64,000 nucleotides of DNA. Source: Eledone cirrhosa (taxonomy: Eukaryota). The stretch lies in the NCBI GenBank assembly GCA_964016885.1, contig OZ024766.1:16306001-16370000 (forward strand), given 5' to 3'. Positions within the stretch are counted from its first letter, which is position 1; every line of letters starts with the position of its first letter. The translations under genes and the position numbers were made by a program. Shown here piece by piece: positions 1 through 38,720 of this stretch. The notes below the pieces were generated by a model. The model saw only the letters and a list, made by a program, of their open reading frames with translations. It ran no database searches and was not told the origin of the DNA.

Positions 1-760
1 TCCCTTCTTCCAATGTCAGTTGTCATACAGGTGTCCATGTCTGTCTTATTTAACTGGCTACTCCAGTGACTGTTCCTTCTAGTCCCTTCTTCCAATGTCA
101 GTTGTCATATAGGTGTCCATGGCTGTCTTATTTAACTGGCTACTCCAGTGACTGCTCCTTCTAGTCCCTTCTTCCAATGTCAGTTCTCATACAGGAGTCC
201 ATGGCTGTCTTATTTAACTGGCCACTCCAGTGACTGCTCCTTCTAGTCCCTTCTTCCAATGTCAGTTGTCATACAGGTGTCCATGGCTGTCTTATTTAAC
301 TGGCTACTCCAGTGACTAATACTTCTAGTCCCTTCTTCCAATGTCAGTTGTCATACAGGAGTCCATGGCTGTCTTATTTAACTGGCTACTCCAGTGACTG
401 CTCCTTCTAGTCCCTTCTTCCAATCTCAGTTGTCATATAGAAGTTCATGGCTGTCTTATTTAACTGGCTACTCCTGTGACTGCTCCCTCTAGTCCCTTCT
501 TCCGATGTCAGTTGTCATACAGGTGTCCATGGCTGTCTTATTTAACTGGCCACTCCAGTGACTGCTCCTTCTAGTCTCTTCTTCCAATGTCAGTTGTCAT
601 ACAGGCGTCCATGGCTGTCTTATTTAACTGGCTACTGCAGTGACTGCTCCTTCTAGTCTCTTCTTCCAATGTCAGTTGTCATACAGGAGTCCATAGCTGT
701 CTTATTTAACTGGCTACTCCAGTGACTGCCCCTTCTTGTCTCTTCTTCCAATGTCGATTG
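1..760. repeat. 82-bp satellite array A (>=9 monomers, cut by window start)
   Basis: Monomer TCCCTTCTTCCAATGTCAGTTGTCATACAGGWGTCCATGGCTGTCTTATTTAACTGGCTACTCCAGTGACTGCTCCTTCTAG; TCCC at positions 1 and 83 gives the period. Confidence 0.97.
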
Positions 761-1165
761 CCATGCAGGAGTTGATGTTCTTTAGATGCTTCTCGGTATG
801 TGCTGCACTCTTCCACCAAATCACCTGAGATCCTCAATTGACGTTGGTCCTTGAACAATATGCAGAAGTGGCTGTAAATAAAAACTCTCTCTGTTGTTGG
901 GGTGGTCATTGTAAACATGCCCAATAGCATCACTTGCCTTGACTTCATCACCTTGCACTAAATGACCCTGCTTCCTTTGATTCCAAGTCTTACAATTGGT
1001 CCAGGTGTAGTATTTTGGGATGTCAGCATATAGGAGGGATCGAACAAATTCTTTAGTCTGGCAGTGTTTCAAAAAAGCAGTTAGAGTAGTGTCAGGTGGT
1101 GCTGGTGTCAACTGATGAGCAGTGGTTTCAGGGAAGTACACACTCTGTCCATTTTCTATATGTAT
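761..1165 (-). mobile_element. Decayed Helitron RepHel internal fragment (region between Rep and PIF1 helicase), upstream half
   Basis: Translation HIENGQSVYF...PPDTTLTAF...LLYADIPKYYTW...IGHVYNDHPNNRESFYLQPLLHIVQGPTSIEDLR, then frameshift to CSTYREA..LLHGNRHW; resembles recalled Helitron consensus HLENGQRVYF/TTLTAFF/GRVYTVHP/FYLRLLL..V.GPTSF.DLR/TYREAC. Confidence 0.88.
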
Positions 1166-3690: not shown

Positions 3691-4214
3691 TGTAACTAAT
3701 TTAACTAATTAAAAACTAAAATAATTTGATTTTTCAATAAAAAGTTTCCAGGGTTTATAGATGTAAAATTTCCACTGTTAAATCTATCTCTGCTTCTTAA
3801 GTATTCTCTATTATTTCATACTGTTTCTTTTTCATTTCAGAATATCAGATGACATTAGGATAAATTATTATTTTCAATCTTGGATACATCACCTCTATTT
3901 ATCATCATTTGAAGATTAAAACTTTTTAAACAGAACTTATATAACACTGTTTATATAAATCTATCAGAATTACTGTGATATATTTCCTCAGAACTGAGTT
4001 TAAAGACAAAATTCCTTTTCTTCACTGTGTGGTATATATATATGAGAGATATATTTTGTATTTTAACTCAGCTTCAATGACAAAGAAGTTTGCATCATCT
4101 TCAGGTATTAACTGAGATCATAATTGAGGGAAATATAACAGAAATAATATTTTTTAGGAAAAAAAATATTAAAGAATAACATCTGTAAATTCTGCCAAGG
4201 GTAGAAGAATTATT

Positions 4215-5828
4215 ATGGAAAATAAATTGAGTGAAAAGAAGATTAAATGTGAAACAATGTCTAAAGATATGGCTATTCCAGAAGAGATGTTAAAGGATAG
4301 AGGAGAGAAGCCATATCACTGTGATGTTTGTGGTAAATCATTCTCTGAAAGTAGTACCTTAACTAGCCACAAACGTACACATACAGGAGAGAAGCCATAT
4401 CACTGTGATATCTGTGGTAAATCATTCTTTGTTAATGGTGAATTAACTAGACACAAACGTACACATACAGGTGAGAAGCCATATCACTGTGATATCTGTG
4501 GTGAATCATTCTCTCAAAGTAGTACCTTAACTAGCCACAAACGTACACATACAGGAGAGAAGCCATATCACTGTGATATCTGTGGTAAATCATTTTCTGG
4601 AAGTGGTCATTTAAATAGCCACATGCGTATACATACAGGTGAGAAGCCATATCACTGTGATATCTGTAGTAAATCATTCTCTTTTAGGAGTAATTTAACT
4701 AGCCACGTGCGTATACATATAGGTGACAAACCATATCACTGTGATATCTGTGGTAAATCATTCTCTCGAAGTAGTATATTAACTTGTCACATCCGTACCC
4801 ATACAGGTGATAAGCCATATCACTGTGATGTCTGTGGTAAATCATTCTCTCACAGTGATACCTTAACTAGCCACGTACGTACCCATACAGGAGACAAACC
4901 ATATAACTGTGATATCTGTGGTAAATCATTCTCTAAAAGTAGTATATTAACTAACCACATGCTTATACATATAGGTGAGAAACCATATTGCTGTGATATC
5001 TGTGGTAAATCATTCTTTGTTAATAGTGAATTAACTAGACACAAACGTACACATACAGGTGAGAAGCCATATCACTGTGATATTTGTGGTAAATCATTCT
5101 CTGAAAGTGGTAGCTTAACTAGACACAAACGTATACATACAGGAGAGAAACCATATCACTGTGATATCTGTGGTAAATCATTCTCTCGAAGTAGTCATTT
5201 AACTACACACAAACATATACATACAGGAGAGAAGCCATATCACTGTGATATCTGTGGTAAATCATTCTCTTTTAGTAGTAATTTAACTTCTCACATACGT
5301 ACTCATACAGGAGACAAGCCTTATCACTGTGATATCTGTGGTAAATCATTCTTTGTTAATAGTAATTTAACTAGTCACAAAAGTATACATACAGGAGAGA
5401 AACCATATCGCTGTGATATCTGTGGTCAATCATTCTCTCTAAGTAGTATATTAACTTATCACATCCGTACCCATACAGGTGACAAGCCATATCACTGTGA
5501 TATCTGTGGTAAATCATTCTCTAGAAGTGGTAACTTAACTACACACAAACGTATACATACAGTAGAGAAGCCAAATCACTGTGATATCTGTGGTAAATCA
5601 TTCTCTGAAAGTAGTAATTTAACTAGCCACATGCGTACCCATACAGGTGACAAACCATATCACTGTCATATCTGTGGTAAATCATTCTCTCGAAGAAGTT
5701 ACTTAACTCAACACTTACGTATCCATACAGGTGAGAAGCCACATCGCTGTGATATCTGTGGTAAATCATTCTCTCAATTAAGTAGTTTAACTAGACACAA
5801 ACATAACCATACAGGTAAGAAACCATAA
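4215..5828 (+). CDS. C2H2 zinc-finger protein, 537 aa, 18 fingers, short N-terminal leader
   Basis: Uninterrupted ORF with 18 CxxC-x12-HxxxH repeats and TGEKPY linkers. Confidence 0.95.
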
Positions 5829-6353
<525 letters not shown>

Positions 6354-8261: not shown

Positions 8262-8623
8262 TACTGTCATGTTGAATGTTTTTCATGATGTTGTGGTCGG
8301 CATATTTCTGGTCATCCACCAGTCAAGATTTATTTTCATCAACAAACTTACGCAACACTTCAATATCATGGTTTGTCTCCTGAAAAACTGATTGTATTAC
8401 CTCAATTTCTTCTGGCTCTGGCATCCCGCGTTGCTATTCATTGCTGGAATTCAATGGGACAGGTTGCACAGAGATTGATTGTAAATCCTGGAGGTAGATT
8501 CCACATAAATATTGCTATAACATCTTTGGGCTAGGTGTAGATAGTCGTCTGACATATTGTTTTTGTACTCCTGCCAGGGTAGATGAGATTTATTCCAGAT
8601 GCTGTGAGTATAGTAGCAAACAA
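8262..8623 (-). mobile_element. Helitron RepHel fragment, downstream half
   Basis: LFATILTA..., WQEYKNNMSDDYLH..IYNQSL, GMPEPEE..ETNHDIEVLRKFVDEN..LVDDQKYA.HNIMKNI, the region leading into the PIF1 helicase. Confidence 0.8.
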
Positions 8624-9933
8624 CTGTCTTATTTAACTGGCTACTCCAGTGACTGCTCCTTCTAGTCCCTTCTTCCAATGTTAGTTGTCATACAGGTGCC
8701 CATGGCTGTCTTATTTAACTGGCCACTCCAGTGACTGCTCCTTCTAGTCTCTTCTTCCAATGTCAGTTGTCATACAGGTGTCCATGGCTGTCTTATTTAA
8801 CTGGCTACTCCAGTGACTGCTCCTTCTAGTCTCTTCTTCCAATGTCAGTTGTCATACAGGTGTCCATGGCTGTCTTATTTAACTGGCTACTCCAGTGACT
8901 GCTCCTTCTAGTCTCTTCTTCCAATGTCAGTTGTCATACAGGTGTCCATGGCTGTCTTATTTAACTGGCCACTTCAGTGACTGCTCCCTCTAGTCCCTTC
9001 TTCCAATGTCAGTTGTCATACAGGAGTCCATGGCTGTCTTATTTAACTGGCTACTCCAGTGACTGCTCCTTCTAGTCCCTTCTTCCAATGTCAGTTGTCA
9101 TACAGGAGTCCATGGATGTCTTACTTAACTGGCTACTCCAGTGACTGCTCCTTCTAGTCTCTTCTTCCAATGTCAGTTGTCATACAGGAGTCCATGGCTG
9201 TCTTATTTAACAGGCTACTCCAGTGACTGCTCCTTCTAGTCCCTTCTTCCAATGTCAGTTGTCATACAGGTGTCCATGGCTGTCTTATTTAACTGGCTAC
9301 TCCAGTGTCTGCTCCTTCTAGTCCCTTCTTCCAATGTCAGTTGTCATACAGGTGTCCATGGCTGTCTTATTTAACTGGCTACTCCAGTGACTGCTCCTTC
9401 TAGTCCCTTCTTCCAATGTCAGTTGTCATACAGGTGTCCATGGCTGTCTTATTTAACTGTCCACTCCAGTGACTGCTCCTTCTAGTCTCTCTTTCCAATG
9501 TCAGTTGTCATACAGGAGTCCATGGCTGTCTTATTTAACTGGCTACTCCAGTGACTGCTCCTTCTCGTCTCTTCTTCCAATGTCAGTTGTCATACAGGTG
9601 TCCATGGCTGTCTTATTTAACTGGCTATTCCAGTGACTGCTCCTTCTAGTCCATTCTTCCAATGTCAGTTGTCATACAGGAGTCCATGGCTGTCTTATTT
9701 AACTGGCTACTCCAGTGACTGCTCCTTCTAGTCTCTTCTTCCAATGTCAGTTGTCATACAGGTGTCCATGGCTGTCTTATTTAACTGGCTACTCCAGTGT
9801 CTGCTCCTTCTAGTCCCTTCTTCCAATGTCAGTTGTCATACAGGTGTCCATGGCTGTCTTATTTAACTGGCTACTCCAGTGACTGCTCCTTCTTGTCTCT
9901 TCTTCCAATGTCAGTTGTCATACAGGTGTCCAT
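8624..9933. repeat. 82-bp satellite array B (~16 monomers)
   Basis: Same monomer, flanked on both sides by collinear Helitron sequence. Confidence 0.97.
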
Positions 9934-10315
9934 AGTATGCTTCTTGGGATGTGCTGCTCTCTGCCACCAAATCACCTGAGATCCTCAAATGACGTTGGTC
10001 CTTGAACAATATGCAGAAGTGACTGTAAATAAAAACTCTCTCTGTTGTTGGGGTGGTCATTGTAAACATGCCCAATAGCATCACTTGCCTTGACTTCATC
10101 ACCTTCCACTAAATGACCCTGCTTCCTTTGATTCCAAGTCTTACAATTGGTCCAGGTGTAGTATTTTGGGATGTCAGCATATAGAAGGGATCGAACAAAT
10201 TCTTTATTCTGGCAGTGTTTCAAAAAAGCAGTTAGAGTAGTGTCAGGTGGTGCTGGTGTCAACTGATGAGCAGTGGTTTCAGTGAAGTACACACTCTGTC
10301 CATTTTCTATATGTA
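9934..10315 (-). mobile_element. Helitron RepHel fragment, upstream half (module 2)
   Basis: ORF 9972-10337 ending VQGPTSFEDLR; paralog of 761-1165. Confidence 0.88.
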
Positions 10316-10324
10316 TAGAGATAA

Positions 10325-10530
10325 GGATGAAAAGCAAAGTTAATCCCTCAGAGGTTAGCTTTGCCTTTCATCCATACGGGGTCGATAAAATGAAGTACCA
10401 GTAATGTACTGAGGTATTTACTGGCCTTGTGCCTAAAGTAGAAACAATTATTACGGGGTCAATAAAATAAAGTACCAGTAATACACTAGGGTAATTGCTG
10501 GCCTTGTGCAAAAAGTAGAAACAATTATCA
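10325..10530 (+). mobile_element. Truncated SINE with two tandem tails
   Basis: Paralog of 1174-1455. Confidence 0.75.
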
Positions 10531-11274: not shown

Positions 11275-11825
11275 TTTATTATTTAAATTACCTCCGTCTA
11301 TTTAATTATCTTGTTCACTACCTTACATAATAAAATATAGTTTATATTTAGCTGTACCTTGTTGTTGCTTTAAGTAAGTTAAAGATATATTTATTATTTA
11401 AATTACCTCCGTCTATTTAATTATGCGGTTCACTACCTGACATTATAAAATATAGTTTATATTTAGCTGTACCTTGTCATTGCTTTAAGTCAATTAAAGA
11501 TATATTTATTATTTAAATTACCTCCGTCTATTTAATTATGTGGTTCACTACCTTACATTATAAAATATAGTTTATATTTAGCTGTACCTTGTTATTGCGT
11601 TAAGTAAATTAAAGATATATTTATTATTTAATTATGTGGTTCACTACCTTACATTATAAAATATAGTTTATATTTAGCTGTACCTTGTCATTGCTTTTAG
11701 TAAATTAAAGATATATTTATTATTTAAATTACCTCCGTCTATTTAATTAACTTGTTCACTACCTTACATTATAAAATATATTTTATATTTAGCTGTACCT
11801 TGTTATTGCTTTAAGTAAATTAATA
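11275..11825. repeat. 115-bp AT-rich minisatellite, ~5 copies (one internally deleted)
   Basis: Same unit as 2192-2500. Confidence 0.9.
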
Positions 11826-12094
11826 TTTTGTCTATTTTAGTCTAAATCTCTTACAACTTAATTAACTTCATCTACTTATGGTTTAACATTACTTTATTGT
11901 GGGTTTCATTTCATTATAATTATGTCTGATTAGCCAGCCAAGTAGGGGTTGAGTATCTGTATTTCAGGGAACTGGTTTGATGGTGAAGGGACATCTGTTG
12001 TTGTGGGATCTCGGTGGCTGTACATAATAAGGTTCTAATACTCTAAAGAGCTAGCTGAATAACCGTCTGATACATGTCTTGTATAGAGGATCAT

Positions 12095-13195: not shown

Positions 13196-13429
13196 AAATT
13201 ATTATTTTCAATCTTGGATACATCACCTCTATTTATCATCATTTGAAGATTAAAACTTTTTAAACAGAACTTATATAACACTGTTTATATAAATCTATCA
13301 GAATTACTGTGAAAATTATTATTTTCAATCTTGGATACATCACCTCTATTTATCATCATTTGAAGATTAAAACTTTTTAAACAGAACTTATATAACACTG
13401 TTTATATAAATCAATCAGAATTACTGTGA
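13196..13429. repeat. 117-bp tandem duplication in the 5'UTR, unique to module 2
   Basis: AAATTATTATTTTCAATCTTGG starts at 13196 and 13313. Confidence 0.92.
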
Positions 13430-13673
13430 TATATTTCCTCAGAACTGAGTTTAAAGACAAAATTCCTTTTCTTCACTGTGTGGTATATATATATGAGAGA
13501 TATATTTTGTATTTTAACTCAGCTTCAATGACAAAGAAGTTTGCATCATCTTCAGATATTAACTGAGATCATAATTGAGGGAAATATAACAGAAGAAATA
13601 TTTTTTAGGAATATAATATAAAAAATATTAAAGAATAACATCTGTAAATTCTGCCAAGGGAAGAAGAATTATT

Positions 13674-15791
13674 ATGGAAAATATATTGAGTGAAAAGAAG
13701 ATTAAATGTGAAACAATGTCTAAAGATATGGCTATTACAGAAGAGATGTCAAAGGATAGAGGAGAGAAGCCATATCACTGTGATGTCTGTGGTAAATCAT
13801 TCTCTGTTAGGAGTAAATTAACTAGTCACAAACGTACTCATACAGGAGAAAAGCAATACCACTGTGATATCTGTGGTAAATCATTCTTTGTTAATGGTAA
13901 TTTAACAAGCCACAAACGTACACATACAGGAGAGAAGCCATACCACTGTGATATCTGTCGTAAATCATTCTCTCAAAGTAGTAATTTAACTAGCCACATG
14001 CGTATACATACAGGTGACAAACCATATCACTGTGATATCTGTGGTAAATCATTCTCTCTAAGTAGTATATTAACTTGTCACATACGTACCCATACAGGAG
14101 ACAAATCATATCACTGTGATATCTGTGGTAAATCATTCTCTGAAAGTAGTATATTAACTAACCACATGCATATACATATAGGTGAGAAGCCATATCGCTG
14201 TAATATCTGTGGTCAATCATTCTCACTAAGTGGTCACTTAACTAGCCACATACGTACCCATACAGGAGACAAGCCTTATAACTGTGATATCTGTGGTAAA
14301 TCATTCTCTAAAAGTACTATATTAACTAACCACATGCATATCCATACAGGAGAGAAGCCATATCACTGTGATATCTGTGGTAAATCATTCTTTGTTAATA
14401 GTAATTTAACTAGACACAAAAGTATACATACAGGTGAGAAGCCATATCACTGTGATATCTGTGGTAAATCATTCTCTCAAAGTGGTCACTTAAGTAGCCA
14501 CAAACGTACCCATACAGGAGAGAAGCCATATAACTGTGATATCTGTGGTAAATCATTCTCTACAAGTACTATATTAACTAACCACATGCATATCCATACA
14601 GGAGAGAAGCCATATCACTGTGATATCTGTGGTAAATCATTCTCTGAAAGTGGTACCTTAACTAGCCACAAATGTACCCATACAGGAGACAAGCCATATC
14701 ACTGTGATATCTGTGGTAAATCATTCTCTCGAAGAAGTTACTTAACTGAGCACTTACGTATCCATACAGGTGAGAAGCCATATCGCTGTGATATCTGTGG
14801 TAAATCATTCTCTCAAAGTAGTCCCTTAACTAGACACAAACGTATACATACAGTAGAGAAGCCAAATCACTGTGATATCTGTGGTAAATCATTCTCTCAA
14901 AGTAGTAATTTAACTAGCCACATGCGTATACATACAGGTGACAAACCATATCACTGTGATATCTGTGGTAAATCATTCTCTCTAAGTAGTATATTAACTT
15001 GTCACATACGTACCCATACAGGAGACAAACCATATCGCTGTGATATCTGTGGTCAAACATTCTCTCTAAGTGGTCACTTAACTAGCCACGTACGTACCCA
15101 TACAGGAGACAAGCCTTATAACTGTGATATCTGTGGTCAATCATTCTCTCTAAGTGGTCACTTAACTAGCCACGTACGTACCCATACAGGAGACAAGCCT
15201 TATAACTGTGATATCTGTGGTAAATCATTCTTTAATAATATTAGTTTAACTAGACATGAACGTACCCATTCAGGAGAGAAGCCATATCACTGTGATATCT
15301 GTGGTAAATCATTCTTTGTTAATAGTAATTTAACTAGACACAAAAGTATACATACAGGTGAGAAGCCATATCACTGTGATATCTGTGGTAAATCATTCTC
15401 TCAAAGTGGTCACTTAACTAGCCACAAACGTACCCATACAGGAGAGAAGCCATATAACTGTGATATCTGTGGTAAATCATTCTCTAAAAGTAGTATATTA
15501 ACTAACCACATGCATATCCATACAGGAGAGAAGCCATATCACTGTGATATCTGTGGTAAATCATTCTCTGAAAGTGGTACCTTAACTAGCCACAAACGTA
15601 CCCATACAGGAGACAAGCCATATCACTGTGATATCTGTGGTAAATCATTCTCTCGAAGAAGTTACTTAACTGAGCACTTACGTATCCATACAGGTGAGAA
15701 GCCATATCGCTGTGATATCTGTGGTAAATCATTCTCTCAATTTAGTAGTTTAACTAGACACAAATATACCCATACAGGTAAGAAACTATAA
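13674..15791 (+). CDS. C2H2 zinc-finger protein, 705 aa, 24 fingers
   Basis: Uninterrupted ORF with 24 fingers. Confidence 0.95.
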
Positions 15792-16555
15792 CAAAGTCAT
15801 ATCTCATTGTCTCAAAATTGTAAATTAATTAGACACAAATACATTCATATGAGTGAGAAGCCATACCACTGTGATATTGTGGAGAAATTATTCTCTTGTA
15901 TTGCTACATTAACTACATACAAACATAAATATATACTGGAGAAAAGCCATATTACTGTGATATCTGTGAGAAATTGTTATCTATAAAAGCTAGCTTAACT
16001 AGACACAAAGATATATATACAGGAGAGAAACCATATCACTGTGATATCTGTGGGAAATCATTCTCTGAAATAAGTCACTTCACTCAGCACTAACATTTAA
16101 AGAAAAGGAACCATATCATTGTGATATCTGCAGTAAATCATTCTCTAAATGTGGCTTCACTACACACTAACATATACAGGAGAGGAACCATATCACTGTG
16201 ATGTCTGTGGTAAATCCTTTTCAAAATGTTTTGTTTTCTCTAGAAACTAACATACAGGAGAGGAACCATATCACTGTGATGTCTGTCGTAAATCATTCTC
16301 TAAATGTTGTGGCTTCACTAGACACTAACTTACACAGGAGAGGAACCATATCACTGTGATGTCTGTGATAAATCCTTCTCTAAATGTTGTGACTTCACTA
16401 GACACAAACATATACAGGAGAGGAAGCATATCACTGTGATGTCTGTCGTAAATCATTCTCTAAATGTTGTGACTTCACTAGAAACTAACATATAAAGGAG
16501 AGGAACCATATCACTGTTGTCTGTGGCAAATCATTTTCTAAATGTTGTGGTACCA
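15792..16555 (+). pseudogene. About 10 decayed zinc-finger units in the 3'UTR
   Basis: Frameshifted finger units; distal 77-80 bp units expanded. Confidence 0.9.
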
Positions 16556-18420: not shown

Positions 18421-18781
18421 GTTGTCATGTTGAATGTTTTTCAAGATGTTATGGTCGGCATATTTCTGGTCATCCACCAGTCAAGGTTTATTTTCATACA
18501 CAAACTTACGCAACACTTCAATATCATGGTTTGTCTCCTGAAAAACTGATTGTATTACCTCAATTTCTTCTGGCTCTGGCATCCTGGATTGCTATTCATT
18601 GCTGGAATTCAATGGGACAGGTTGCACAGAGGTTGATTGTAAATCCTGGAGGTAGATTCCACATAAATATTGCTATAACATCTTTGGGCTGGGTGTAGAT
18701 AGTCGTCTGACATATTGTTTTTGTACTCCTGCCAGGGTAGATGAGATTTATTCCACATGCTGTGAGTATAGTAGCAAACAA
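18421..18781 (-). mobile_element. Helitron RepHel fragment, downstream half
   Basis: ORFs with FATILTACGIN and WQEYKNNMSDDYLH. Confidence 0.8.
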
Positions 18782-21700
18782 CTGTCTTATTTAACTGGCT
18801 ACTCCAGTGTCTGCTCCTTCTAGTCTCTTCTTCCAATGTCAGTTGTCATACAGGAGTCCATGGCTGACTTATTTAACTGGCTACTCCAGTGACTGCTCCT
18901 TCTAGTCCCTTCTTCCAATGTCAGTTGTCATACAGGTGTCAATGGCTGTTATTTTACTGGCTACTCCAGTGACTGCTCCTTCTGGTCCCTTCTTCCAATG
19001 ATAGTTGTCATACAGGTGTCAATGGCTGTTATTTAACTGGCTACTGCAGTGACTGCTCCTTCTGGTCCCTTCTTCCAATGTCAGTTGTCATACAGGTGTC
19101 AATGGCTGTTATTTAACTGACTGCTCCTTCTAGTCCCTTTTTCCAATGTCAGTTGTCATACAGGTGTCCATGGCTGTCTTATTTAACTGGCTACTCCAGT
19201 GACTGCCCCTTCTAGTCCCTTCTTCCAATGTCAGTTGTCATACAGGTGTCCATGGCTGTCTTATTTAACTGGCTACTCCAGTGACTGCCCCTTCTAGTCC
19301 CTTCTTCCAATGTCAGTTGTCATACAGGTGTCCATGGCTGTCTTATTTAACTGGCTACTCCAGTGACTGCCCCTTCTAGTCCCTTCTTCCAATGTCAGTT
19401 GTCATACAGGAGTCCATGGCTGTCTTATTTAACTGGCTACTCCAGTGACTGCCCCTTCTAGTCCCTTCTTCCAATGTCAGTTGTCATACAGGTGTCCATG
19501 GCTGTCTTATTTAACTGGCTACTCCAGTGACTGCTCCTTCTCGTCTCTCTTTCCAATATCAGTTGTCTTACAGGAGTCCATGGCTGTCTTATTTAACTGG
19601 CTACTCCAGTGACTGCTCCTGCTAGTCTCTTCTTCCAATGTCAGCTGTCATACAGGAGTCCATGGCTGTCTTATTTAACTGGCTACTCCAGTGACTGCTC
19701 CTTCTAGTCCCTTCTTCCAATGTCAGTTGTCATACAGGTGTCCATGACTGTCTTATTTAACTGGATACTCCAGTGATTGCCCCATCTAGTCTCTTCTTCC
19801 AATGTCAGTTGACATACAGGTGTCCATGGCTGTCTTATTTAACTGGCTACTCCAGTGACTGCTCCCTCTAGTCCCTTCTTCCAATGTCAGTTGTCATACA
19901 GGAGTCCATGACTGTCTTATTTAACTGGCTACTCCAGTGACTGCTCCTTCTAGTCCCTTCTTCCAATATCAGTTGTCATACAGAAGTCCATGGCTGTCTT
20001 ATTTAACTGGCTACTCCAGTGACTGCTCCTTCTAGTCCCTTCTTCCAATGTCAGTTGTCATACAGGTGTCCATGGCTGTCTTATTTAACTGGCTACTCCA
20101 GTGACTGCTACTTCTAGTCTCTTCTTCCAATATCAGTTGTCATACAGGAGTCCATGGCTGTCTTATTTAACTGGCTACTCAAGTGACTGCTCCTTCTAGT
20201 CCATTCTTCCAATGTCAGTTGTCATACAGGAGTCCATGGTTGTCTTATTTAACTGGCTACTCAAGTGACTGCTCCTTCTAGTCCATTCTTCCAATGTCAG
20301 TTGTCATACAGGAGTCCATGGTTGTCTTATTTAACTGGCTACTCAAGTGACTGCTCCTTCCAGTCCATTCTTCCAACGTCAGTTGTCATACAGGAGTCGA
20401 TGGCTGTCTTATTTAACTGGCTACTCAAGTGACTGCTCCTTCTAGTCCATTCTTCCAATGTCAGTTGTCATACAGGAGTCCATGGTTGTCTTATTTAACT
20501 GACTACTCCAGTGACTGCTCCTTTTAGTCCCTTCTTCCAATGTCAGTTGTCATACAGGTGTCCATGGCTGTCTTATTTAACTGGCTACTCCAGTGACTGC
20601 TCCTTCTAGTCTCTTCTTCTAATGTCAGTTGTCATACAGGTGTCCATGGCTGTCTTATTTAACTGGCTACTCCAGTGACTGCTCCTTCTAGTCCCTTCTT
20701 CCAATGTCAGTTGTCATACAGGTGTCCATGGCTGACTTATTTAACTGGCTACTCCAGTGACTGCTCCTTCTAGTCCCTTCTTCCAATGTCAGTTGTCATA
20801 CAGGTGTCCATGGCTGTCTTATTGAAATGGCTACTCCAGTGACTGCTCCTTCTAGTCCCTTCTTCCAATGTCAATTGTCATACAGGTGTCCATGGCTGTC
20901 TTATTTAACTGGCTACTCCAGTGACTGCTCCTTCTAGTCCCTTCTTCCAATGTCAGTTGTCATACAGGTGTCCATGGCTGTCTTATTTAACTGGCTACTC
21001 CAGTGACTGCTCCTTCTAGTCCCTTCTTCCAATGTCAGTTGTCATACAGGTGTACATGGCTGACTTATTTAACTGGCTACTCCAGTGATTGCCCCTTCTA
21101 GTCTCTTCTTCCAATGTCAGTTATACAGGTGTCCATGGCTGTCTTATTTAACTGGCTACTCCTGTGACTGCTCCTTCTAGTCTCTTCTTCCAATGTCAGT
21201 TGTCATACAGGAGTCCATGGCTGTCTTATTTAACTGGCTACTCCAGTGATTTCCCCTTCTAGTCCCTTCTTCCAATGTCAGTTGTCATACAGGAGTCCAT
21301 GGCTGTCTTATTTAACTGGCTACTTCAGTGACTGCTCCTTCTAGTCCCTTCTTCCAATGTCAGTTGTCATACAGGAGTCCATGTCTGTCTTATTTAACTG
21401 GCTACTCCAGTGACTGCTCCTTCTAGTCCCTTCTTCCAATGTTAGTTGTCATACAGGTGTCCATGGCTGTCTTATTTAACTGGCTACTCCAGTGACTGCT
21501 CCTTTTAGTCCCTTCTTCCAATGTCAGTTGTCATACAGGTGTCCATGGCTGTCTTATTTAACTGGTTACTCCAGTGGCTGCTCCTTCTAGTCCCTTCTTC
21601 CAATGTCAGTTGTCATACAGGAGTCCATGTCTGTCTTATTTAACTGGCTACTCCAGTGACTGCTCCTTCTAGTCCCTTCTTCCAATGTTAGTTGTCATAC

Positions 21701-24700
21701 AGGTGTCCATGGCTGTCTTATTTAACTGGCTACTCCAGTGACTGCTCCTTTTAGTCCCTTCTTCCAATGTCAGTTGTCATACAGGTGTCCATGGCTGTCT
21801 TATTTAACTGGCTACTCCAGTGACTGCCCCTTCTAGTCTCTTCTTCCAACGTCAGTTGTCATACAGGTGTCCATGTCTGTCTTATTTAACTGGCTACTCC
21901 TGTGACTGCTCCTTCTAGTCTCTTCTTCCAATGTCAGTTATCATACAGGAGTCCATGGCTGTCTTATTTAACTGGCCACTCCAGTGACTGCTCCTTCTAG
22001 TCTCTTCTTCCAATGTCAGTTGTCATACAGGTGTCCATGGCTGTCTTACTTAACTGGCTACTCCAGTGATTTCCCCTTCTAGTCCCTTCTTCCAATGTCA
22101 GTTGTCATACAGGAGTCCATGGCTGTCTTATTTAACTGGCTACTGCAGTGACTGCTCCTTCTAGTCTCTTCTTCCAATATCAGTTGTCATACAGGAGTCC
22201 ATGGCTGTCTTATTTAACTGGCTACTCCATTGATTTCCCCTTCTAGTCCCTTCTTCCAATGTCAGTTGTTATACAGGTGTCCATGGCTGTCTTATTTAAC
22301 TGGCTACTCCAGTGATTTCCCCTTCTAGTCCCTTCTTCCAATGTCAGTTGTCATACAGGAGTCCATGGCTGTCTTATTTAACTGGCTACTCCAGTGATTT
22401 CCCCTTCTAGTCACTTCTTCCAATGTCAGTTCTCATACAGGTGTCCATGGCTGTCTTATTTAACTGGCTACTCCAGTGACTGCTCCTTCTAGTCCCTTCT
22501 TCCAATGTCAGTTGTCATACAGGTGTCCATGGCTGTCTTATTTAACTGGCTACTCCAGTGACTGCTCCTTCTAGTCTCTTCTTCTAATGTCAGTTGTCAT
22601 ACAGGTGTCCATGGCTGTCTTATTTAACTGACTGTTCCTTCTAGTCCCTTCTTCCAATGTCAGTTGTCATACAGGTGTCCATGGCTGACTTATTTAACTG
22701 GCTACTCCAGTGACTGCTCCTTCTAGTCCCTTCTTCCAATGTTAGTTGTCATACCGGTGTCCATGGCTGTCTTATTTAACTGGCTACTCCAGTGACTGCT
22801 CCTTCTAGTCTCTTCTTCCAATGTCAGTTGTCATACAGGTGTACATGGCTGACTTATTTAACTGGCTACTCCAGTGATTGCCCCTTCTAGTCTCTTCTTC
22901 CAATGTCAGTTATCATACAGGAGTCCATGGCTGTCTTATTTAACTGGCTACTCAAGTGACTGCTCCTTCTAGTCCATTCTTCCAATGTCAGTTGTCATAC
23001 AGGTGTCCATGGCTGTCTTATTTAACTGGCTACTCCAATGACTGCTCCTTCTAGTCCCTTCTTCCAATGTCAGTTGTCATACAGGTGTCCATGGCTGTCT
23101 TATTTAACTGGCTACTGCAGTGAGTGCTCCTTCTACTCTCTTCTTCCAATGTCAGTTGTCATACAGGAGTCCATGGCTGTCTTATTTAACTGGCTACTCC
23201 ATTGATTTCCCCTTCTAGTCTCTTCTTCCAATGTCAGTTGTCATACAGGTGTGCATGGCTGACTTATTTAACTGGCTACTCCAGTGATTGCCCCTTCTAG
23301 TCTCTTCTTCCAATGTCAGTTGTCATACAGGAGTCCATGGCTGTCTTATTTAACTGGCTACTGCAGTGACTGCTCCTTCTAGTCTCTTCTTCCAATATCA
23401 GTTGTCATACAGGTGTCCATGGCTGTCTTATTTAACTGGCTACTCCAGTGACTGCTCCTTCTAGTCCCTTCTTCCAATGTCAGTTGTTATACAGGTGTCC
23501 ATGGCTGTCTTATTTAACTGGCTACTCAAGTGATTTCCACTTCTAGTCCCTTCTTCCAATGTCAGTTGTCATACTGGAGTCCATGGCTGTCTTATTTAAC
23601 TGGCTACTGCAGTGACTGCTCCTTCTAGTCTCTTCTTCCAATATCAGTTGTCATACAGGTGTCCATGGCTGTCTTATTTAACTGGCTACTCCAATGACTG
23701 CTCCTTCTAGTCCCTTCTTCCAATGTCAGTTGTCATACAGGTGTCCATGGCTGTCTTATTTAACTGGCTACTGCAGTGACTGCTCCTTCTTCTCTCTTCT
23801 TCCAATGTCAGTTGTCATACAGGAGTCCATGGCTGTCTTATTTAACTGGCTACTCCATTGATTTCCCCTTCTAGTCCCTTCTTCCAATGTCAGTTGTTAT
23901 ACAGGTGTCCATGGCTGTCGTATTTAACTGGCTACTCCAGTGATTTCCCCTTCTAGTCCCTTCTTCCAATGTCAGTTGTCATACAGGAGTCCATGGCTGT
24001 CTTATTTAACTGGCTACTCCAGTGATTTCCCCTTCTAGTCACTTCTTCCAATGTCAGTTCTCATACAGGTGTCCATGGCTGTCTTATTTAACTGGCTACT
24101 CCAGTGACTGCTCCTTCTAGTCCCTTCTTCCAATGTCAGTTGTCATACAGGTGTCCATGGCTGTCTTATTTAACTGGCTACTCCAGTGACTGCTCCTTCT
24201 AGTCTCTTCTTCTAATGTCAGTTGTCATACAGGTGTCCATGGCTGTCTTATTTAACTGACTGCTCCTTCTAGTCCCTTCTTCCAATGTCAGTTGTCATAC
24301 AGGTGTCCATGGCTGACTTATTTAACTGGCTAATCCAGTGAATGCTCCTTCTAGTCCCTTCTTCCAATGTTAGTTGTCATACCGGTGTCCATGGCTGTCT
24401 TATTTAACTGGCTACTCCAGTGACTGCTCCTTCTAGTCTCTTCTTCCAATGTCAGTTGTCATACAGGTGTACATGGCTGACTTATTTAACTGGCTACTCC
24501 AGTGATTGCCCCTTCTAGTCTCTTCTTCCAATGTCAGTTATCATACAGGAGTCCATGGCTGTCTTATTTAACTGGCTACTCAAGTGACTGCTCCTTCTAG
24601 TCCATTCTTCCAATGTCAGTTGTCATACAGGTGTCCATGGCTGTCTTATTTAACTGGCTACTCCAATGACTGCTCCTTCTAGTCCCTTCTTCCAATGTCA

Positions 24701-25125
24701 GTTGTCATACAGGTGTCCATGGCTGTCTTATTTAACTGGCTACTGCAGTGACTGCTCCTTCTACTCTCTTCTTCCAATGTCAGTTGTCATACAGGAGTCC
24801 ATGGCTGTCTTATTTAACTGGCTACTCCATTGATTTCCCCTTCTAGTCCCTTCTTCCAATGTCAGTTGTCATACAGGTGTCCATGGCTGTCTTATTTAAC
24901 TGGCTACTCCAGTGATTTCCACTTCTAGTCCCTTCTTCCAATGTCAGTTGTCATACAGGAGTCCATGGCTGTCTTATTTAACTGGCTACTCCAGTGATTT
25001 CCCCTTCTAGTCACTTCTTCCAATGTCAGTTGTCATACAGGTGTCCATGGCTGTCTTATTTAACTGGCTACTCCAGTGACTTCCCCTTCTAGTCTCTTCT
25101 TCCAATGTCAATTGCCCCATGCATG
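18782..25125. repeat. 82-bp satellite array C (~77 monomers)
   Basis: Same monomer; contains a 1628-bp higher-order duplication. Confidence 0.97.
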
Positions 25126-25520
25126 AGTTGTTGTTCTTTAGATGCTTCTTGGTATGTGCTGCACTCTTCCACCAAATCACCTGAGATCCTCAAATAACGT
25201 TGGTCCTTGAACAATATGCAGAAGTGACTGTAAATAAAAACTCTCTCTGTTGTTGGGGTGGTCATTGTAAACATGCCCAATAGCATCACTTGCCTTGACT
25301 TCATCACCTTCCACTAAATGACCCTGCTTCCTTTGATTCCAAGTCTTACAATTGGTCCAGGTGTAGTATTTTGGGATGTCAGCATATAGGAGGGATCGAA
25401 CAAATTCTTTATTCTGGCAGAGTTTCAAAAAAGCAGTTAGAGTAGTGTCAGGTGGTACTGGTGTCAACTAATGAGCAGTGGTTTCAGTGAAGTACACACT
25501 CTGTCCATTTTCTATATGTA
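25126..25520 (-). mobile_element. Helitron RepHel fragment, upstream half (module 3)
   Basis: ORF 25177-25467 with TTLTAFLKLCQ; in-frame stop upstream. Confidence 0.88.
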
Positions 25521-25529
25521 TAGAGATAA

Positions 25530-25735
25530 GGATGAAAAGCAAAGTTAATCTCTCAGAGGTTAGCTTTGCCTTTCATCCTTACGGGGTCGGTAAAATAAAG
25601 TACCAGTAATGTACTAGGGTAATTGCTGACCTTGTGCCTAATGTAGAAACAATTATTACGAGGTCGATAAAATAAAGTACCAGTAATTCACTGGGGTATT
25701 TACTGGCCTTGTGCCAAAAGTAGAAACAATTATCA
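25530..25735 (+). mobile_element. Truncated SINE with two tandem tails
   Basis: Paralog of 1174-1455. Confidence 0.75.
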
Positions 25736-28006: not shown

Positions 28007-28525
28007 TGTAACTAATTAAAAATTAAAATAATTTGATTTTTCAATAAAAAGTTTCTAGGGTTTATAGATGTAAAGTTTCCACTGTTAAATCTATCTCTGC
28101 TTCTTAAGTATTCTCTATTATCTCATACTGTTTCTTTTTCATTTCAGAATATCAGATGACATTGGGATAAATTATTATTTTCAATCTTGGATACATCACC
28201 TCTATTTATCATCATTTGAAGATTAAAACTTTTTAAACAGAACTTATATAACACTGTTTATATAAATCTATCAGAATTACTGTGATATATTTCCTCAGAA
28301 CTGAGTTTAAAGACAAAATTCCTTTTCTTCACAGTGTGGTATATATATGGGAGATATATTTTGTATTTTAACTCAGCTTCAATGACAAAGAAGTTTGATC
28401 ATTTCAGATATTAACTGAGATCATAATTGAGGGAAATATAACAGAAGTAATATTTTTTAGGAATATAATATAAAAAATATTAAAGAATAACATCTGTAAA
28501 TTCTGCCAAGGGAAGAAGAATTATT

Positions 28526-30139
28526 ATGGAAAATATATTGAGTGAAAAGAAGATTAAATGTGAAACAATGTCTAAAGATATGGCTATTACAGAAGAGATG
28601 TCAAAGGATAGAGGAGAGAAGCCATATCACTGTGATGTCTGTGGTAAATCATTCTCTGTTAGGAGTAAATTAACTAGTCACAAACGTACCCATACAGGAG
28701 AGAAGCCATATAACTGTGATATCTGTGATAAATCATTCTCTGAAAGTGGTACCTTAACTATACACAAACGTATACATACAGTAGAGAAGTCATATCACTG
28801 TGATATCTGTGGTAAATCATTCTTTGTTAATGGTAATTTAACAAGACACAAACGTACACATACAGGAGAGAAGCCATACCACTGTGATATCTGTGGTAAA
28901 TCATTCTCTCGAAGTAGTCACTTAACTGGCCACAAACGGACACATACGGGTGAGAAGCCATATCGCTGTTTTATCTGTGGTAAATCATTCTCTCTAAGTA
29001 GTATATTAACTTTTCACGTACGTACCCATACAGGTGACAAACCATATCACTGTGATATCTGTGGTAAATCATTCTCTCGAAATAATATATTAACTTGTCA
29101 CATACGTACCCATACAGGAGACAAGCCATATCACTGTGATATCTGTGGTAAATCATTCTCTCGAAGTAGTAAATTAACTAACCACATGCATATACATATA
29201 GGTGAGAAACCATATCGCTGTGATATTTGTGGTAAATCATTCTCTCGAAATAATACATTAACTTGTCACATACGTACCCATACAGGAGACAAGCCATATC
29301 ACTGTGATATCTGTGGTAAATCATTCTCTCTAAGTAGTATATTAACTTTTCACGTATGTACCCATACAGGTGACAAACCATATCACTGTGATATCTGTGG
29401 TAAATCATTCTCTCGAAATAATATATTAACTTGTCACATACGTACCCATACAGGAGACAAGCCATATCACTGTGATATCTGTGGTAAATCATTCTCTCAA
29501 AGTGGTCACTTAACTAGCCACAAACGTACCCATACAGTAGAGAAACCATATCGCTGTGATATCTGTGGTAAATCATTCTTTGTTAATAGTAAATTAACTA
29601 GACACAAACGTGTACATACAGTAGACAAGCCATATCACTATGATATCTGTGGTAAATCATTCTCTGATAGTGGTAGCTTAACTAGCCACAAACGTATACA
29701 TATAAGAGAGAAGCCATATCACTGTGATATCTGTGGTAAATCATTCTCTCAAAGTCCTGGCTTAACTAGGCACAAACGTATACATACAGGAGACAAGCCA
29801 TATCACTGTGATATCTGTGGTAAATCATTCTCTCAAAGTCCTGGCTTAACTAGGCACAAACGTATACATACAGGAGAGAAGCCATATCACTGTGATATCT
29901 GTGGTAAATCATTCTCTGAAAGTGGTAACTTAACTAGCCACAAACGTATACATACAGGAGAGAAGCCATATCACTGTGATATCTGTGGTAAATCATTCTC
30001 TGAAAGTGGTAACTTAACTAGCCACAAACGTATACATACAGGTGAGAAGCCACATCACTGTGATATCTGTGGTAAATCATTCTCTCAATTAAGTAGTTTA
30101 ACTAGACACAGATATACCCATACAGGTAAGAAACCATAA
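28526..30139 (+). CDS. C2H2 zinc-finger protein, 537 aa, 18 fingers (finger 13 has lost its first Cys)
   Basis: Uninterrupted ORF; YHYDIC in finger 13. Confidence 0.95.
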
Positions 30140-30745
30140 CAAAGTCATATCTCATTGTCTCAAAATTGTAAATAAATTATACACAAATACATTCATATGA
30201 GTGAGAAGCCATACCACTGTGATATTGTGGAGAAATTATTCTCTTGTATTGCTACATTAACTACATACAAACATAAATATATACTGGAGAAAAGCCATTT
30301 TACTGTGATATCTGGGGGAAATTGTTATCTATAAAAGCTAGCTTAACTAGACAGAAACATATACATACAGGAGAGAAACCATATCACTGTGATATCTGTG
30401 GGAAATCATTCTCTGAAATAAGTCACTTCACTCAGCATTAACAATTACAGAAAAGGGACCATATCACTGTGATATCTGCAGTAAATCATTCTCTAAATAT
30501 TGTGGCTTCACTACACACTAACATATACAGGAGAGGAACCATATCACTGATATCTGCAGTAAATCATTCTCTAAATGTGGCTTCACTAGACACTAACATA
30601 TACAGGAGAGGAACTATATCACTGTGATGTCTGTGGTAAATCCTTCTCTAAATTTTGAGGCTTCCCTACACACTAACATATACAGGAGAGGAACCATATC
30701 ACTGTGTTGTCTGTGGTAAATCATTTTCTAAATGTTGTGGTACCA
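30140..30745 (+). pseudogene. About 8 decayed zinc-finger units in the 3'UTR
   Basis: Frameshifted finger units. Confidence 0.9.
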
Positions 30746-32632: not shown

Positions 32633-32984
32633 TGTTGTCATGTTGAATATTTTTCATGATGTTGTGGTAGGCATATTTCTGGTCATCCACCAGTCAAGGT
32701 TTATTTTCATCCACAAACTTACGCAACACTTCAATATCATGGTTTGTCTCCTGAAAAACTGATTGTATTACCTCAATTTCTTCTGGCTCTGGCATCCTGC
32801 ATTGCTGTAATTCAATGGGACAGGTTGCACAGAGCTTGATTGTAAATCTTGGAGGTAGATTCCACATAAATATTGCTATAACGTCTTTGGGCTACGTGTA
32901 GATAGTCGTCTGACATATTGTTTTTGTGCTCCTGCCAGGGACGATGAGATTTATTCCACATGCTGTGAGTATAGTAGCAAACAA
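32633..32984 (-). mobile_element. Helitron RepHel fragment, downstream half
   Basis: WQEHKNNMSDDYLH..IYNQAL. Confidence 0.8.
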
Positions 32985-33385
32985 CTGTCTTAGTTAACTG
33001 GCTACTCCAGTGACTGCTCCTTCTAGTCCCTTCTTCCAATGTCAGTTGTCATACAGGTGTCCATGGCTGTCTTATTTAACTGGCTACTCCAGTGACTGCT
33101 CCTTTTAGTCCCTTCTTCCAATGTCAGTTGCAATACAGGAGTCCATGGCTGTCTTATTTAACTGGCTACTCCAGTGACTGCTCCTTCTAGTCTCTTCTTC
33201 CAATGTCAATTGTCATACAGGAGTCCATGGCTGTCTTATTTAACTGGCTACTCCAGTGACTGCTCCTTCTAGTCTCTTCTTCCAATCTCAGTTGTCATAC
33301 AGAAGTCCATGGCTGTCTTATTTAACTGGCTACTCCAGTGACTGCTCCTTCTAGTCTCTTCTTCCAATATCAATTGCCATGCAGA
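32985..33385. repeat. 82-bp satellite array D (~5 monomers)
   Basis: Same monomer. Confidence 0.97.
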
Positions 33386-33780
33386 ATTTGATGTTCTTTA
33401 GATGCTTCTTGTTATTTGCTGCACTCTGCCACCAAATCACCTGAGATCCTCAAATGATGTTGGTCCTTGAACAATATGCAGAAGTGGCTGTAAATAAAAA
33501 CTCTCTCTGTTGTTGGGGTGGTCATTGTAAACATGCCCAATAGCATCACTTGTCTTGACTTCATCACCTTCCACTAAATGACCCTGCTTCCTTTGATTCC
33601 AAGTCTTACAATTGGTCCAGGTGTAGTATTTTGGGATGTCAGCATATAGGAGGGATCGAACAAATTCTTTATTCTGGCAGTGTTTCAAAAAAGCAGTTAG
33701 AGTAGTGTCAGGTGGTGCTGGTGTCAACTGATGAGCAGTGGTTTCAGTGAAGTACACACTCTGTCCATTTTCTATATGTA
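33386..33780 (-). mobile_element. Helitron RepHel fragment, upstream half (module 4)
   Basis: ORF 33437-33802. Confidence 0.88.
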
Positions 33781-33789
33781 TAGAGATAA

Positions 33790-34070
33790 GGATGAAAAGC
33801 AAAGTTAATCCCTCAGAGGTTAGCTTTGCCTTTCATCCCTACGGGGTCGGTAAAATAAAGTACCAGTAATGTACTGGGGTATTGCTGGCCTTGTGCCTAA
33901 TGTAGAAACAATTATTACAGGGTCGATAAAATATAGTACCAGTAATGCACTGGCGTATTTACTGGCCTTGTGCCTAAAGTAGAAACAATTATTACGGGGT
34001 CGATAAAATAATGTACCAGTAATACACTAGGGTAATTGCTGGCCTTGTGCCAAAAGTAGAAACAATTATC
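33790..34070 (+). mobile_element. Truncated SINE with three tandem tails
   Basis: Paralog of 1174-1455. Confidence 0.75.
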
Positions 34071-36470: not shown

Positions 36471-36993
36471 TGTAACTAATTAAAAACTAAAATAATTTGA
36501 TTTTTCAATAAAAAGTTTCCAGGGTTTATAGATGTAAAATTTCCACTGTTAAATCTATCTCTGCTTCTTAAGTATACTCTATTATTTCATACTGTTTCTT
36601 TTTCATTTCAGAATATCAGATGACATTGGGATAAATTATTTTTTTCAATCTTGGATACATCACCTCTATTTATCATCATTTGAAGATTAAAACTTTTTAA
36701 ACAGAACTTATATAACACTGTTTATATAAATCAATCAGAATTACTGTGATATATTTCCTCAGAACTGAGTTTAAAGACAAAATTCCTTTTCTTCACTGTG
36801 TGGTATATATATATGAGAGATATATTTTGTATTTTAACTCAGCTTCAATGACAAAGAAGTTTGCATCATCTTCAGGTATTAACTGAGATCATAATTGAGG
36901 GAAATATAACAAAAATAATATTTTTTAGGAATATAATATAAAAAATATTAAAGAATAACATCTGTAAATTCTGCCAAAGGAAGAAGAATTATT

Positions 36994-38271
36994 ATGGAAA
37001 ATAAATTGAGGGAAAAGAAGATTAAATGTGAAACAATGTCTAAAGATATGGCTATTACAGAAGAGATGTCAAAGGATAGAGGAGAGAAGCCATATCACTG
37101 TGATGTTTGTGGTAAATCATTCTCTGAAAGTGGTAACTTAACTAGACACAAACGTATACATACAGAAGAGAAGCCATATCACTGTGATATCTGTGGTAAA
37201 TCATTCTTTGTTAATGGTAATTTAACAAGCCACAAACGTACACATACAGGAGAGAAGCCATATCACTGTGATATCTGTGGTAAATCATTCTCTCAAAGTA
37301 GTAATTTAACTAGCCACATGCGTATACATACAGGTGAGAAGCCATATCACTGTGATATCTGTGGTAAATTATTCTTTGTTAATAGTAAATTAACTAGACA
37401 CAAACGTACACATACAGGAGAGAAGCCATATCACTGTGATATCTGTGGTAAATCATTCTCTCTAAGTAGTATATTAACTTGTCACATCCGTACCCATACA
37501 GGTGACAAGCAATATCACTGTGATATCTGTGGCAAATCATTCTCTGAAAGTGGTACCTTAACTAGACACAAGCGTATACATACAGGAGAGAAGCCATATC
37601 ACTGTGATATCTGTGGTAAATCATTCTCTTTTAGTATTAATATAAATTCTCACATACGTACTCATACAGGAGAGAAGCCATATCACTGTGATATCTGTGG
37701 TAAATCATTCTTTAATAATATTAGTTTAACTAGACACGAACGTACCCATTCAGGAGAGAAGCCATATCACTGTGATATCTGTGGTAAATCATTCTCTGAA
37801 AGTGGTACCTTAACTAGCCACAAACGTATACATACAGGAGACAAGCCATATCACTGTGATATCTGTGGTAAATCATTCTCTCGAAGAAGTTGCTTAACTG
37901 AGCACTTACGTATCCATACAGGTGAGAAGCCATATCACTGTGATATCTGTAGTAAATCATTCTCTGATAGTGGTACCTTAACTAGCCACATACGTATACA
38001 TACAGGAGAGAAGCCATATCACTGTGATATCTGTAGTAAATCATTCTCTGAAAGTGGTACCTTAACTAGACACAAACGTATCCATACAGGAGAGAAGCCA
38101 TATCACTGTGATATCTGTGGTAAATCATTCTCTGAAAGTGGTACCTTAACTAGACACAAACGTATCCATACAGGAGAGAAGCCATATCACTGTGATATCT
38201 GTGGTATATCATTCTCTCAATTAAGTAGTTTAACTAAACACAAATATACCCATACAGGTAAGAAACCATAA
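36994..38271 (+). CDS. C2H2 zinc-finger protein, 425 aa, 14 fingers
   Basis: Uninterrupted ORF with 14 fingers. Confidence 0.95.
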   Translation: MENKLREKKIKCETMSKDMAITEEMSKDRGEKPYHCDVCGKSFSESGNLTRHKRIHTEEKPYHCDICGKSFFVNGNLTSHKRTHTGEKPYHCDICGKSFSQSSNLTSHMRIHTGEKPYHCDICGKLFFVNSKLTRHKRTHTGEKPYHCDICGKSFSLSSILTCHIRTHTGDKQYHCDICGKSFSESGTLTRHKRIHTGEKPYHCDICGKSFSFSININSHIRTHTGEKPYHCDICGKSFFNNISLTRHERTHSGEKPYHCDICGKSFSESGTLTSHKRIHTGDKPYHCDICGKSFSRRSCLTEHLRIHTGEKPYHCDICSKSFSDSGTLTSHIRIHTGEKPYHCDICSKSFSESGTLTRHKRIHTGEKPYHCDICGKSFSESGTLTRHKRIHTGEKPYHCDICGISFSQLSSLTKHKYTHTGKKP

Positions 38272-38720
38272 CAAAGTCATATCTCATTGTCTCAAAATTG
38301 TAAATTAATTAGACACAAATACATTCATATGAGTGAGAAGCCATACCACTGTGGTATTGTGGAGAAATAATTCTCTTGTATTGCTACATTAACTACATAC
38401 AAACATAAATATATACTGGAGAAAAGCCATATTACTGTGATATCTGTGGAAATTGTTATCTATAAAAGCTAGCTTAACTAGACACAAACATATATATACA
38501 GGAGAGGAACTATATCACTGTGATATCTGTGGGAAATCATTCTCTGAAATAAGTCACTTCACTCAGCACTAACATTTACAGAAAAGGAACCATATCACTG
38601 TGATATCTGCAGTAAATCATTCTCTAAATGTTGTGACTTCACTAGACACTAACATATACAGGAGAGGAACTGTATCACTGTGATGTCTGTGGTAAATCAT
38701 TTTCTAAATGTTCTGGTACC
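38272..38720 (+). pseudogene. About 6 decayed zinc-finger units in the 3'UTR
   Basis: Frameshifted finger units. Confidence 0.9.

Follow-up and report, generated by a model that had tools for sequence, protein, structure and literature searches.

Organisation of the locus

The window, which is the whole stretch of DNA that was analysed, comprises 64,000 nucleotides (G000:C27:16306001-16370000) of a 3.0-Gb genome. It is made up of 7-9 kb cassettes in series that are 87-98% alike. Each cassette has the same order: an array of 82-bp monomers, a piece of Helitron, 77-bp and 115-bp repeats, a C2H2 zinc-finger frame, another Helitron piece and then the next array. Positions in the window are as follows.

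1-772, minus strand: array A, 20 copies in the genome, clipped by the window edge
786-1162, minus strand: upstream Helitron flank of array A
4173-5828, plus strand: C2H2 zinc-finger frame, 551 aa, 18 fingers
8264-8623, minus strand: downstream Helitron RepHel fragment of array B, from LFATILT onward, stopping just short of the PIF1 Walker A region; 76-83% against dispersed Helitron copies, abutting the monomer match
8624-9933, minus strand: array B, 16 copies of the 82-bp monomer; monomer 76-85% against the single parent segment
9937-10313, minus strand: upstream Helitron RepHel fragment of array B, ENGQ..YF to GPTSFEDLR; DNA 84-88% against dispersed copies, with protein matches
13632-15791, plus strand: C2H2 zinc-finger frame, 719 aa, 24 fingers
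18423-18781, minus strand: downstream Helitron flank of array C
18782-25114, minus strand: array C, about 78 copies
25142-25518, minus strand: upstream Helitron flank of array C
28484-30139, plus strand: C2H2 zinc-finger frame, 551 aa, 17 fingers by motif count
32636-32984, minus strand: downstream Helitron flank of array D
32985-33384, minus strand: array D, 5 copies (the first in register, and 4 more)
33402-33778, minus strand: upstream Helitron flank of array D
36952-38271, plus strand: C2H2 zinc-finger frame, 439 aa, 14 fingers by motif count
40262-64000, minus strand: array E, 290 copies within the window and about 463 copies (38 kb) in the genome; downstream Helitron flank deleted
1224-1453, 10375-10528, 25579-25733 and 33840-34069: 77-bp tandem repeat, the tail of a dispersed repeat, not Helitron-derived

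The Helitron piece is an internal fragment of about 820 bp rather than a complete element with ends. Helitron coding DNA, from eight parent loci and the C28 locus described below, matches the window cassette at the two flanks of the array only. The dispersed repeat whose tail forms the 77-bp tandem is presumably a SINE. Decayed finger repeats of 80-86 bp run on beyond the stop codon of every finger frame (5895-6349, 15858-16549, 30365-30740 and 38411-38710). The 115-bp AT-rich repeat is found in all cassettes and varies in copy number (11275-11868 and its paralogues). One cassette has a 117-bp duplication (13196-13429).

Origin of the 82-bp monomer

On the minus strand, the monomer translates LLYDN*HWKKGLEGAVTGVAS*IRQ, HLYDN being the commoner variant. 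The initial annotation had read this translation, with the left flank continuing in frame into LFATILTA, and we found both. It had also proposed that the monomer is the Helitron coding stretch between Rep and helicase, in register with both flanks. This was borne out, and the limits given at array B (8262-10315) agree almost exactly with those measured for the Helitron fragment (8264-10313). The junction CSTYREA.KEHQLLHGNRHW is present at array A, but 6 further bases are missing there at array B.

A protein search with the 112-residue right-flank frame returned 1079 relatives at E<=0.001. Among the 11 relatives scanned, Helitron_like_N was present in 8 and PIF1 in 6. A profile built from 42 database proteins was then compared with an internal dimer of array E. 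The dimer scored 12.6 bits at profile positions 126-157, the place expected, and the maximum in 300 shuffles was 4.2. Hence, the likeness of flank and monomer to Helitron is not due to chance. A word-index protein search for longer relatives, which is a weak search, had found none before the later search gave the 1079. A Pfam scan of both flank frames returned no family, the linker having no Pfam model.

The spacing of conserved motifs was determined in 70 proteins, comprising database proteins and Helitrons from the same genome. From GPTS to xRxLF the distance is 50 residues in 46 of the 47 proteins where both motifs were found. The same interval in array D is 145 + 4 x 82 nt. Hence, one copy fills the gap, minus 5 nt. 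Array D cut to its first copy aligned collinearly, over 215-221 residues, with all four database proteins tried. A gap over the monomer, which would have counted against a Helitron origin, was looked for in the alignment and did not appear. Collapsing the arrays to one monomer was expected to restore a collinear reading frame. Collinearity is indeed restored, but the frame is not open: a 2-nt loss, a 3-nt loss and the stops persist.

The monomer equates to 84 nt of the Rep-PIF1 linker (28 codons, H to Q), with one base gained at the junction and 3 nt lost. The exact breakpoints are ambiguous, being consistent with 84+1 nt and a 2-nt overlap or with an 85-nt unit and one substitution. We conclude that the 82-bp satellite almost certainly derives from a Helitron RepHel reading frame.

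Parent Helitrons in the same genome

Searching the genome at the protein level with the flank gave 83 matches in the cluster around the window and 67 dispersed matches at 71-83%. Forty of the 67 dispersed loci, picked by the flank alone, were retrieved for comparison with the monomer. The initial annotation had predicted Helitrons with a single monomer, and 39 of the 40 loci contain it once. The match is near full length in 35 loci (identity 76-85%), and in 37 it directly adjoins the flank matches on both sides. No array of the monomer was found in any of the 40. In a count over 79 loci, 78 have one monomer match and none has two. One parent locus, L087, reads GPTSFEDLR..KQHGLLHDNGHWKKCLEEAAITQVASQIRQLFAIML and then continues into PIF1, with Rep upstream. 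Its frames match Helitron_like_N (Rep/HUH, PF14214) at 1e-36 and 4e-10, and the frame containing the monomer segment matches PIF1 (PF05970) at 7e-60.

An older subfamily (L098, L242-L244, L248 and L249) is closer still, at up to 87%. In two comparisons of diagnostic sites, the cassette agrees with the older subfamily at 18-19 of 24 and at 11 of 15. In the upstream flank, the main family is 2.5% from its own consensus and the cassettes are 1.5-2% from theirs. Cassettes and older subfamily differ by 6-7% in the upstream flank and 11-12% in the downstream flank. These divergences point to an old insertion and to recent amplification or homogenisation of the cassette, in relative terms.

At least 12 copies of the parent family lie within 0.4 Mb at G000:C1:217.33-217.72 Mb (L266-L268, L270, L274, L275, L300 and L301), with neighbours about 8 kb apart. 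Those retrieved carry a single monomer. This stretch is a second tandem duplication bearing the parent Helitron family without the satellite. Another Helitron family occurs as near-identical copies about 100 kb apart (L031-L058; G000:C20:3.5-5.2 Mb, C27:13.0-15.5 Mb and C19:35-40 Mb), most of which share one 362-residue open frame. Their spacing suggests large segmental repeats. At L061 (G000:C2:315525000-315533500) a Helitron frame is open over 1718 residues; this is possibly an intact element.

Extent of the cluster

We examined 1.26 Mb around the locus. The cluster spans 1.09 Mb and comprises 95 arrays and 99 zinc-finger frames of 3-24 fingers. Arrays total about 272 kb (25% of the cluster), with a median of 19 copies and a range of 2-463. 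All are head-to-tail and the longest, of 463 copies, is about 38 kb. The 82-bp monomer is present in about 3300 copies; some long duplications in the cluster may be assembly or haplotype artefacts, which would reduce such counts and leave the origin unaffected. No cassette with a single monomer copy was found in the cluster, the smallest array having two copies, one partly deleted.

The junction between monomers was used to search the genome. All 2193 exact matches lie inside the cluster. With 2 mismatches there were 3134 matches, comprising 3127 in the cluster and 7 on contig C28, and a pattern with 0-3 junction bases gave 1855, all within the cluster and the C28 locus; such searches could overlook arrays that are more diverged or have two copies. 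The 82-base joint was present in all three sequencing runs, and the 85-base joint of the C28 array in one of the three (one contig, run X2), the runs being from one sample that is possibly the assembly's own.

Several features of cluster architecture were also noted. The two halves are inverted, with finger genes facing the centre near G000:C27:16.39-16.40 Mb (L184, L185), and the 463-copy array adjoins this turning point. A direct duplication of about 315 kb (G000:C27:16001007 and 16315935; 100% identity across the flank tested) could be real or a haplotype artefact. Between the duplicates, long arrays differ in length and short ones do not. In three cassettes (G000:C27:16470029-16476271, 16530807-16536308 and 16721008-16727505), which stem from one rearrangement, a short finger frame separates the array from its upstream Helitron flank.

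A second array on another contig

The second locus (C28:110108824-110109502) contains 8 copies of 85 bp inside a 4.2-kb Helitron relic. Its junction is identical to that of the cluster, without the 3-nt loss. This array is an earlier state of the satellite. Downstream of the array the Helitron match extends for about 2.4 kb, and upstream of it for about 1.2 kb; a 95%-identical sibling of the element ends before the array. No zinc-finger frame was found within 30 kb. The C28 locus overturns the idea that the tandem was born solely in the decayed cassette copy. The initial annotation described the satellite as still in situ. Helitron flanks do still surround the arrays, but the identical junction also occurs in a second Helitron copy, on contig C28, and the satellite may thus have been born elsewhere. 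We also considered whether 85-bp units in the cluster hold the ancestral 3 nt; this was rejected, as they carry a new GAA insertion instead.

Monomers from C28 and the cluster group together against single copies (support 91/86). Both arrays have T22 and A39, and neither base occurs in any of 65 single-copy loci. Hence, one origin is likely. Independent duplications at identical breakpoints could be invoked, given that the two backbones are not sisters and that the short breakpoint overlap could favour recurrence. However, the two arrays also have the extra junction base in common. None of the 65 single-copy loci has this base, T22 or A39, or a tandem of the segment. We regard recurrence as most improbable and a single origin of the C27 and C28 arrays as highly probable. 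Two other markers were dropped. The supposed shared 2-nt deletion upstream proved to be losses of 4 and 2 nt, and the base that immediately precedes the unit is also present among single copies (7 of 65).

The flanks of the C28 array and the cassette share 2 exclusive sites in about 760 nt, against a background of 0-3, and there are 3 such sites in the unit (p ~0.009, rough binomial test). At the 24 diagnostic sites, main-family states number 7 in C28 and 1 in the cassette. Together, these observations suggest that the array moved as a patch between Helitron copies. The flank tree is a star and does not reject a clade of C28 and cassette (AU p 0.33), which keeps transposition of an element with its array as a rival. 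At 6 exclusive flank sites the cassette agrees with L098, an element with a single monomer copy, and no simple account of this works without recombination.

Under transposition, the duplication would have taken place in a lineage of Helitrons that could still move, and elements carrying the array would have inserted in trans at C27 and C28. Both arrays do occupy the homologous place in Helitron copies of one older subfamily, and the cassette has nothing in common with the surroundings of the C28 copy beyond dispersed repeats. Helitrons are also known to carry internal arrays, according to the available part of PMC12628747. Against this stand the backbones, which the exclusive flank sites and the diagnostic states do not make sisters. 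Moreover, only two loci were found, and a burst of substitution would be required at the duplication itself. Insertion in trans is thus possible but the less probable course, and we lean slightly towards patch transfer between Helitron copies.

Homogenisation and change in array length

Monomers differ by 5.8% within arrays, 6.0% between arrays and 17% from the parent family. Hence, exchange acts cluster-wide. Monomers are 3.7% from their own consensus, and a length of 82 bp was measured in 2922 of 3110 units. The in-register first copy departs from inner copies over the first 20-odd bases, as expected from its position at the array edge. Three sister cassettes with a common flank stop codon have 102, 83 and 77 copies.

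A beta-satellite block is reported to be co-duplicated with each zinc-finger gene in the human 19p12 cluster (Eichler 1998), and hot spots of unequal crossing-over have been proposed there. Arrays could likewise drive growth of the present cluster. There is one array per cassette, and 24 array ends lack the Helitron flank, stemming from about 5 or 6 distinct junctions. However, loss of linkage across arrays (rho 0.08, 26/136 discordant pairs) is no greater than across array-free upstream intervals (rho -0.06 to 0.15; nearest 26/133 discordant), in a test made blunt by exchange that is near saturation everywhere. Higher linkage (0.22-0.42) is limited to markers just downstream of the finger gene. 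Arrays occupy a quarter of the cluster, and there are also several deletions and duplications in its array-free part. Linkage and breakpoint comparison within the cluster thus gave no sign that crossovers concentrate in arrays, and we consider an array-driven expansion unlikely. The human beta-satellite is unrelated in sequence; here the origin is traced to a transposase gene and there is no hot-spot signal.

Relation to the 70-90 bp repeat class

A 70-90 bp tandem repeat associated with C2H2 clusters is reportedly described in the octopus genome paper of 2015. The initial annotation suggested that this class was born from a transposase ORF. The period of 82 bp and the place beside C2H2 genes fit. 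However, the 82-bp repeat is not beside C2H2 genes genome-wide, as 3127 of the 3134 junction matches fall in one cluster and the other 7 at C28. Other repeats fit the size too. The same cassette contains repeats of 77, 80, 84 and 86 bp, namely the 77-bp repeat, the zinc-finger coding repeats (84 bp) and their decayed tails (80 and 86 bp). The 77-bp junction is matched 1250 times across the genome, including 101 times in the cluster, and 25 contigs are represented among the first 100 matches listed. Hence, the Helitron repeat is a local case and not the class. It is very unlikely that the 82-bp satellite gave rise to the genome-wide class, which it leaves unexplained; the 77-bp repeat is the better candidate. 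Arrays of at least 10 copies of the 77-bp repeat occur on C21. The available parts of PMC9795677, PMC9068888, PMC12513265, PMC10547256 and PMC9115989 do not restate the octopus report.

A model for the satellite

The interpretation that we favour is that the satellite is a tandem-amplified 84-nt piece of RepHel. This probably had one birth, was probably passed between two Helitron copies and was probably carried as a passenger of the duplicating cassette. Briefly, the extra junction base brings the 28-codon unit to 85 bp and disrupts the frame. This state is kept in the 8 copies of the Helitron relic at G000:C28:110.109 Mb. The array may have entered the two Helitron backbones as a patch, in either direction, by gene conversion or template switching between copies; we prefer this to transposition of a whole array-bearing element. 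The C27 copy would then have lost 3 nt per unit, giving 82 bp, and all but about 820 bp of the element. Both losses are visible today, and their order is our proposal. Finally, unequal crossing-over and conversion could have produced about 95 cassettes, with arrays of 2 to 463 copies, and kept the monomers alike.

Judged from sequence, it is quite likely that the arrays are passengers of cassette duplication and that no function is needed; they probably have none. We give very little credence to another proposal, namely that zinc-finger proteins of the cluster bind this Helitron family. Each gene would then carry its own amplified target, and array length might tune silencing. If true, a transposase-derived satellite would have been recruited as a feedback element in a gene cluster directed against transposons.

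Comparison with known satellites

Statements on published systems refer to the available parts of the sources cited. Satellites from transposon reading frames are on record in chicken (HinfI, CR1 ORF2), Phodopus (PROsat, LINE-1 ORF2) and rye (E900, gag-like) (PMC9659126). These resemble the 82-bp satellite in being tandem repeats with sequence from a transposon coding region. However, they derive from retroelements and are mostly partial matches in a longer monomer (PMC9659126). Here, a single coding segment of a rolling-circle transposon makes up the entire monomer and is accompanied by its flanks, parent family and earlier 85-bp state.

Satellites linked to Helitrons originate from central repeats or from truncated elements in tandem (PMC12628747, PMC12001565, PMC13404089, PMC7754599). 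Drosophila DINE-TR1 and oyster Helentron arrays are similar in that an array within a Helitron can outgrow the element, but they stem from central regions of non-autonomous elements at many sites (PMC12628747, PMC9659126, PMC7492417). In contrast to the non-coding central repeats of the DINE-TR1 type, the 82-bp monomer is RepHel coding sequence; it occupies two loci, and its bulk comes from duplication of a host cassette. Plant and Xenopus (Heli1Xen1/Heli2Xen) rolling-circle arrays are likewise tandem Helitron copies. In those arrays, the repeated sequence is an element end, a truncated element or a terminal minisatellite, with 121-1996 nt and 2-7 copies in Xenopus (PMC12001565, PMC12628747), whereas an internal 84-nt coding piece without termini is repeated here up to 463 times.

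As in locus-specific satellites, the arrays are long and head-to-tail and the monomers homogenised. No satellite from RepHel coding sequence was found in the open literature, with supplements, subscription papers, Repbase and Dfam outside the scope of the search. A satellite from a transposon reading frame is of a known kind, and the RepHel case is new in the literature searched.

Satellite origins are seldom traceable. Here, a full series exists within one genome: a single 84-nt segment, 8 x 85 bp and about 3300 x 82 bp. The case yields breakpoints at base level and an array common to two different transposon backbones. A link between transposons and C2H2 expansion in this lineage has been called an open question (PMC12513265), and the satellite marks one young zinc-finger cluster. 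Its 95 arrays are replicates that can be used to measure length change.
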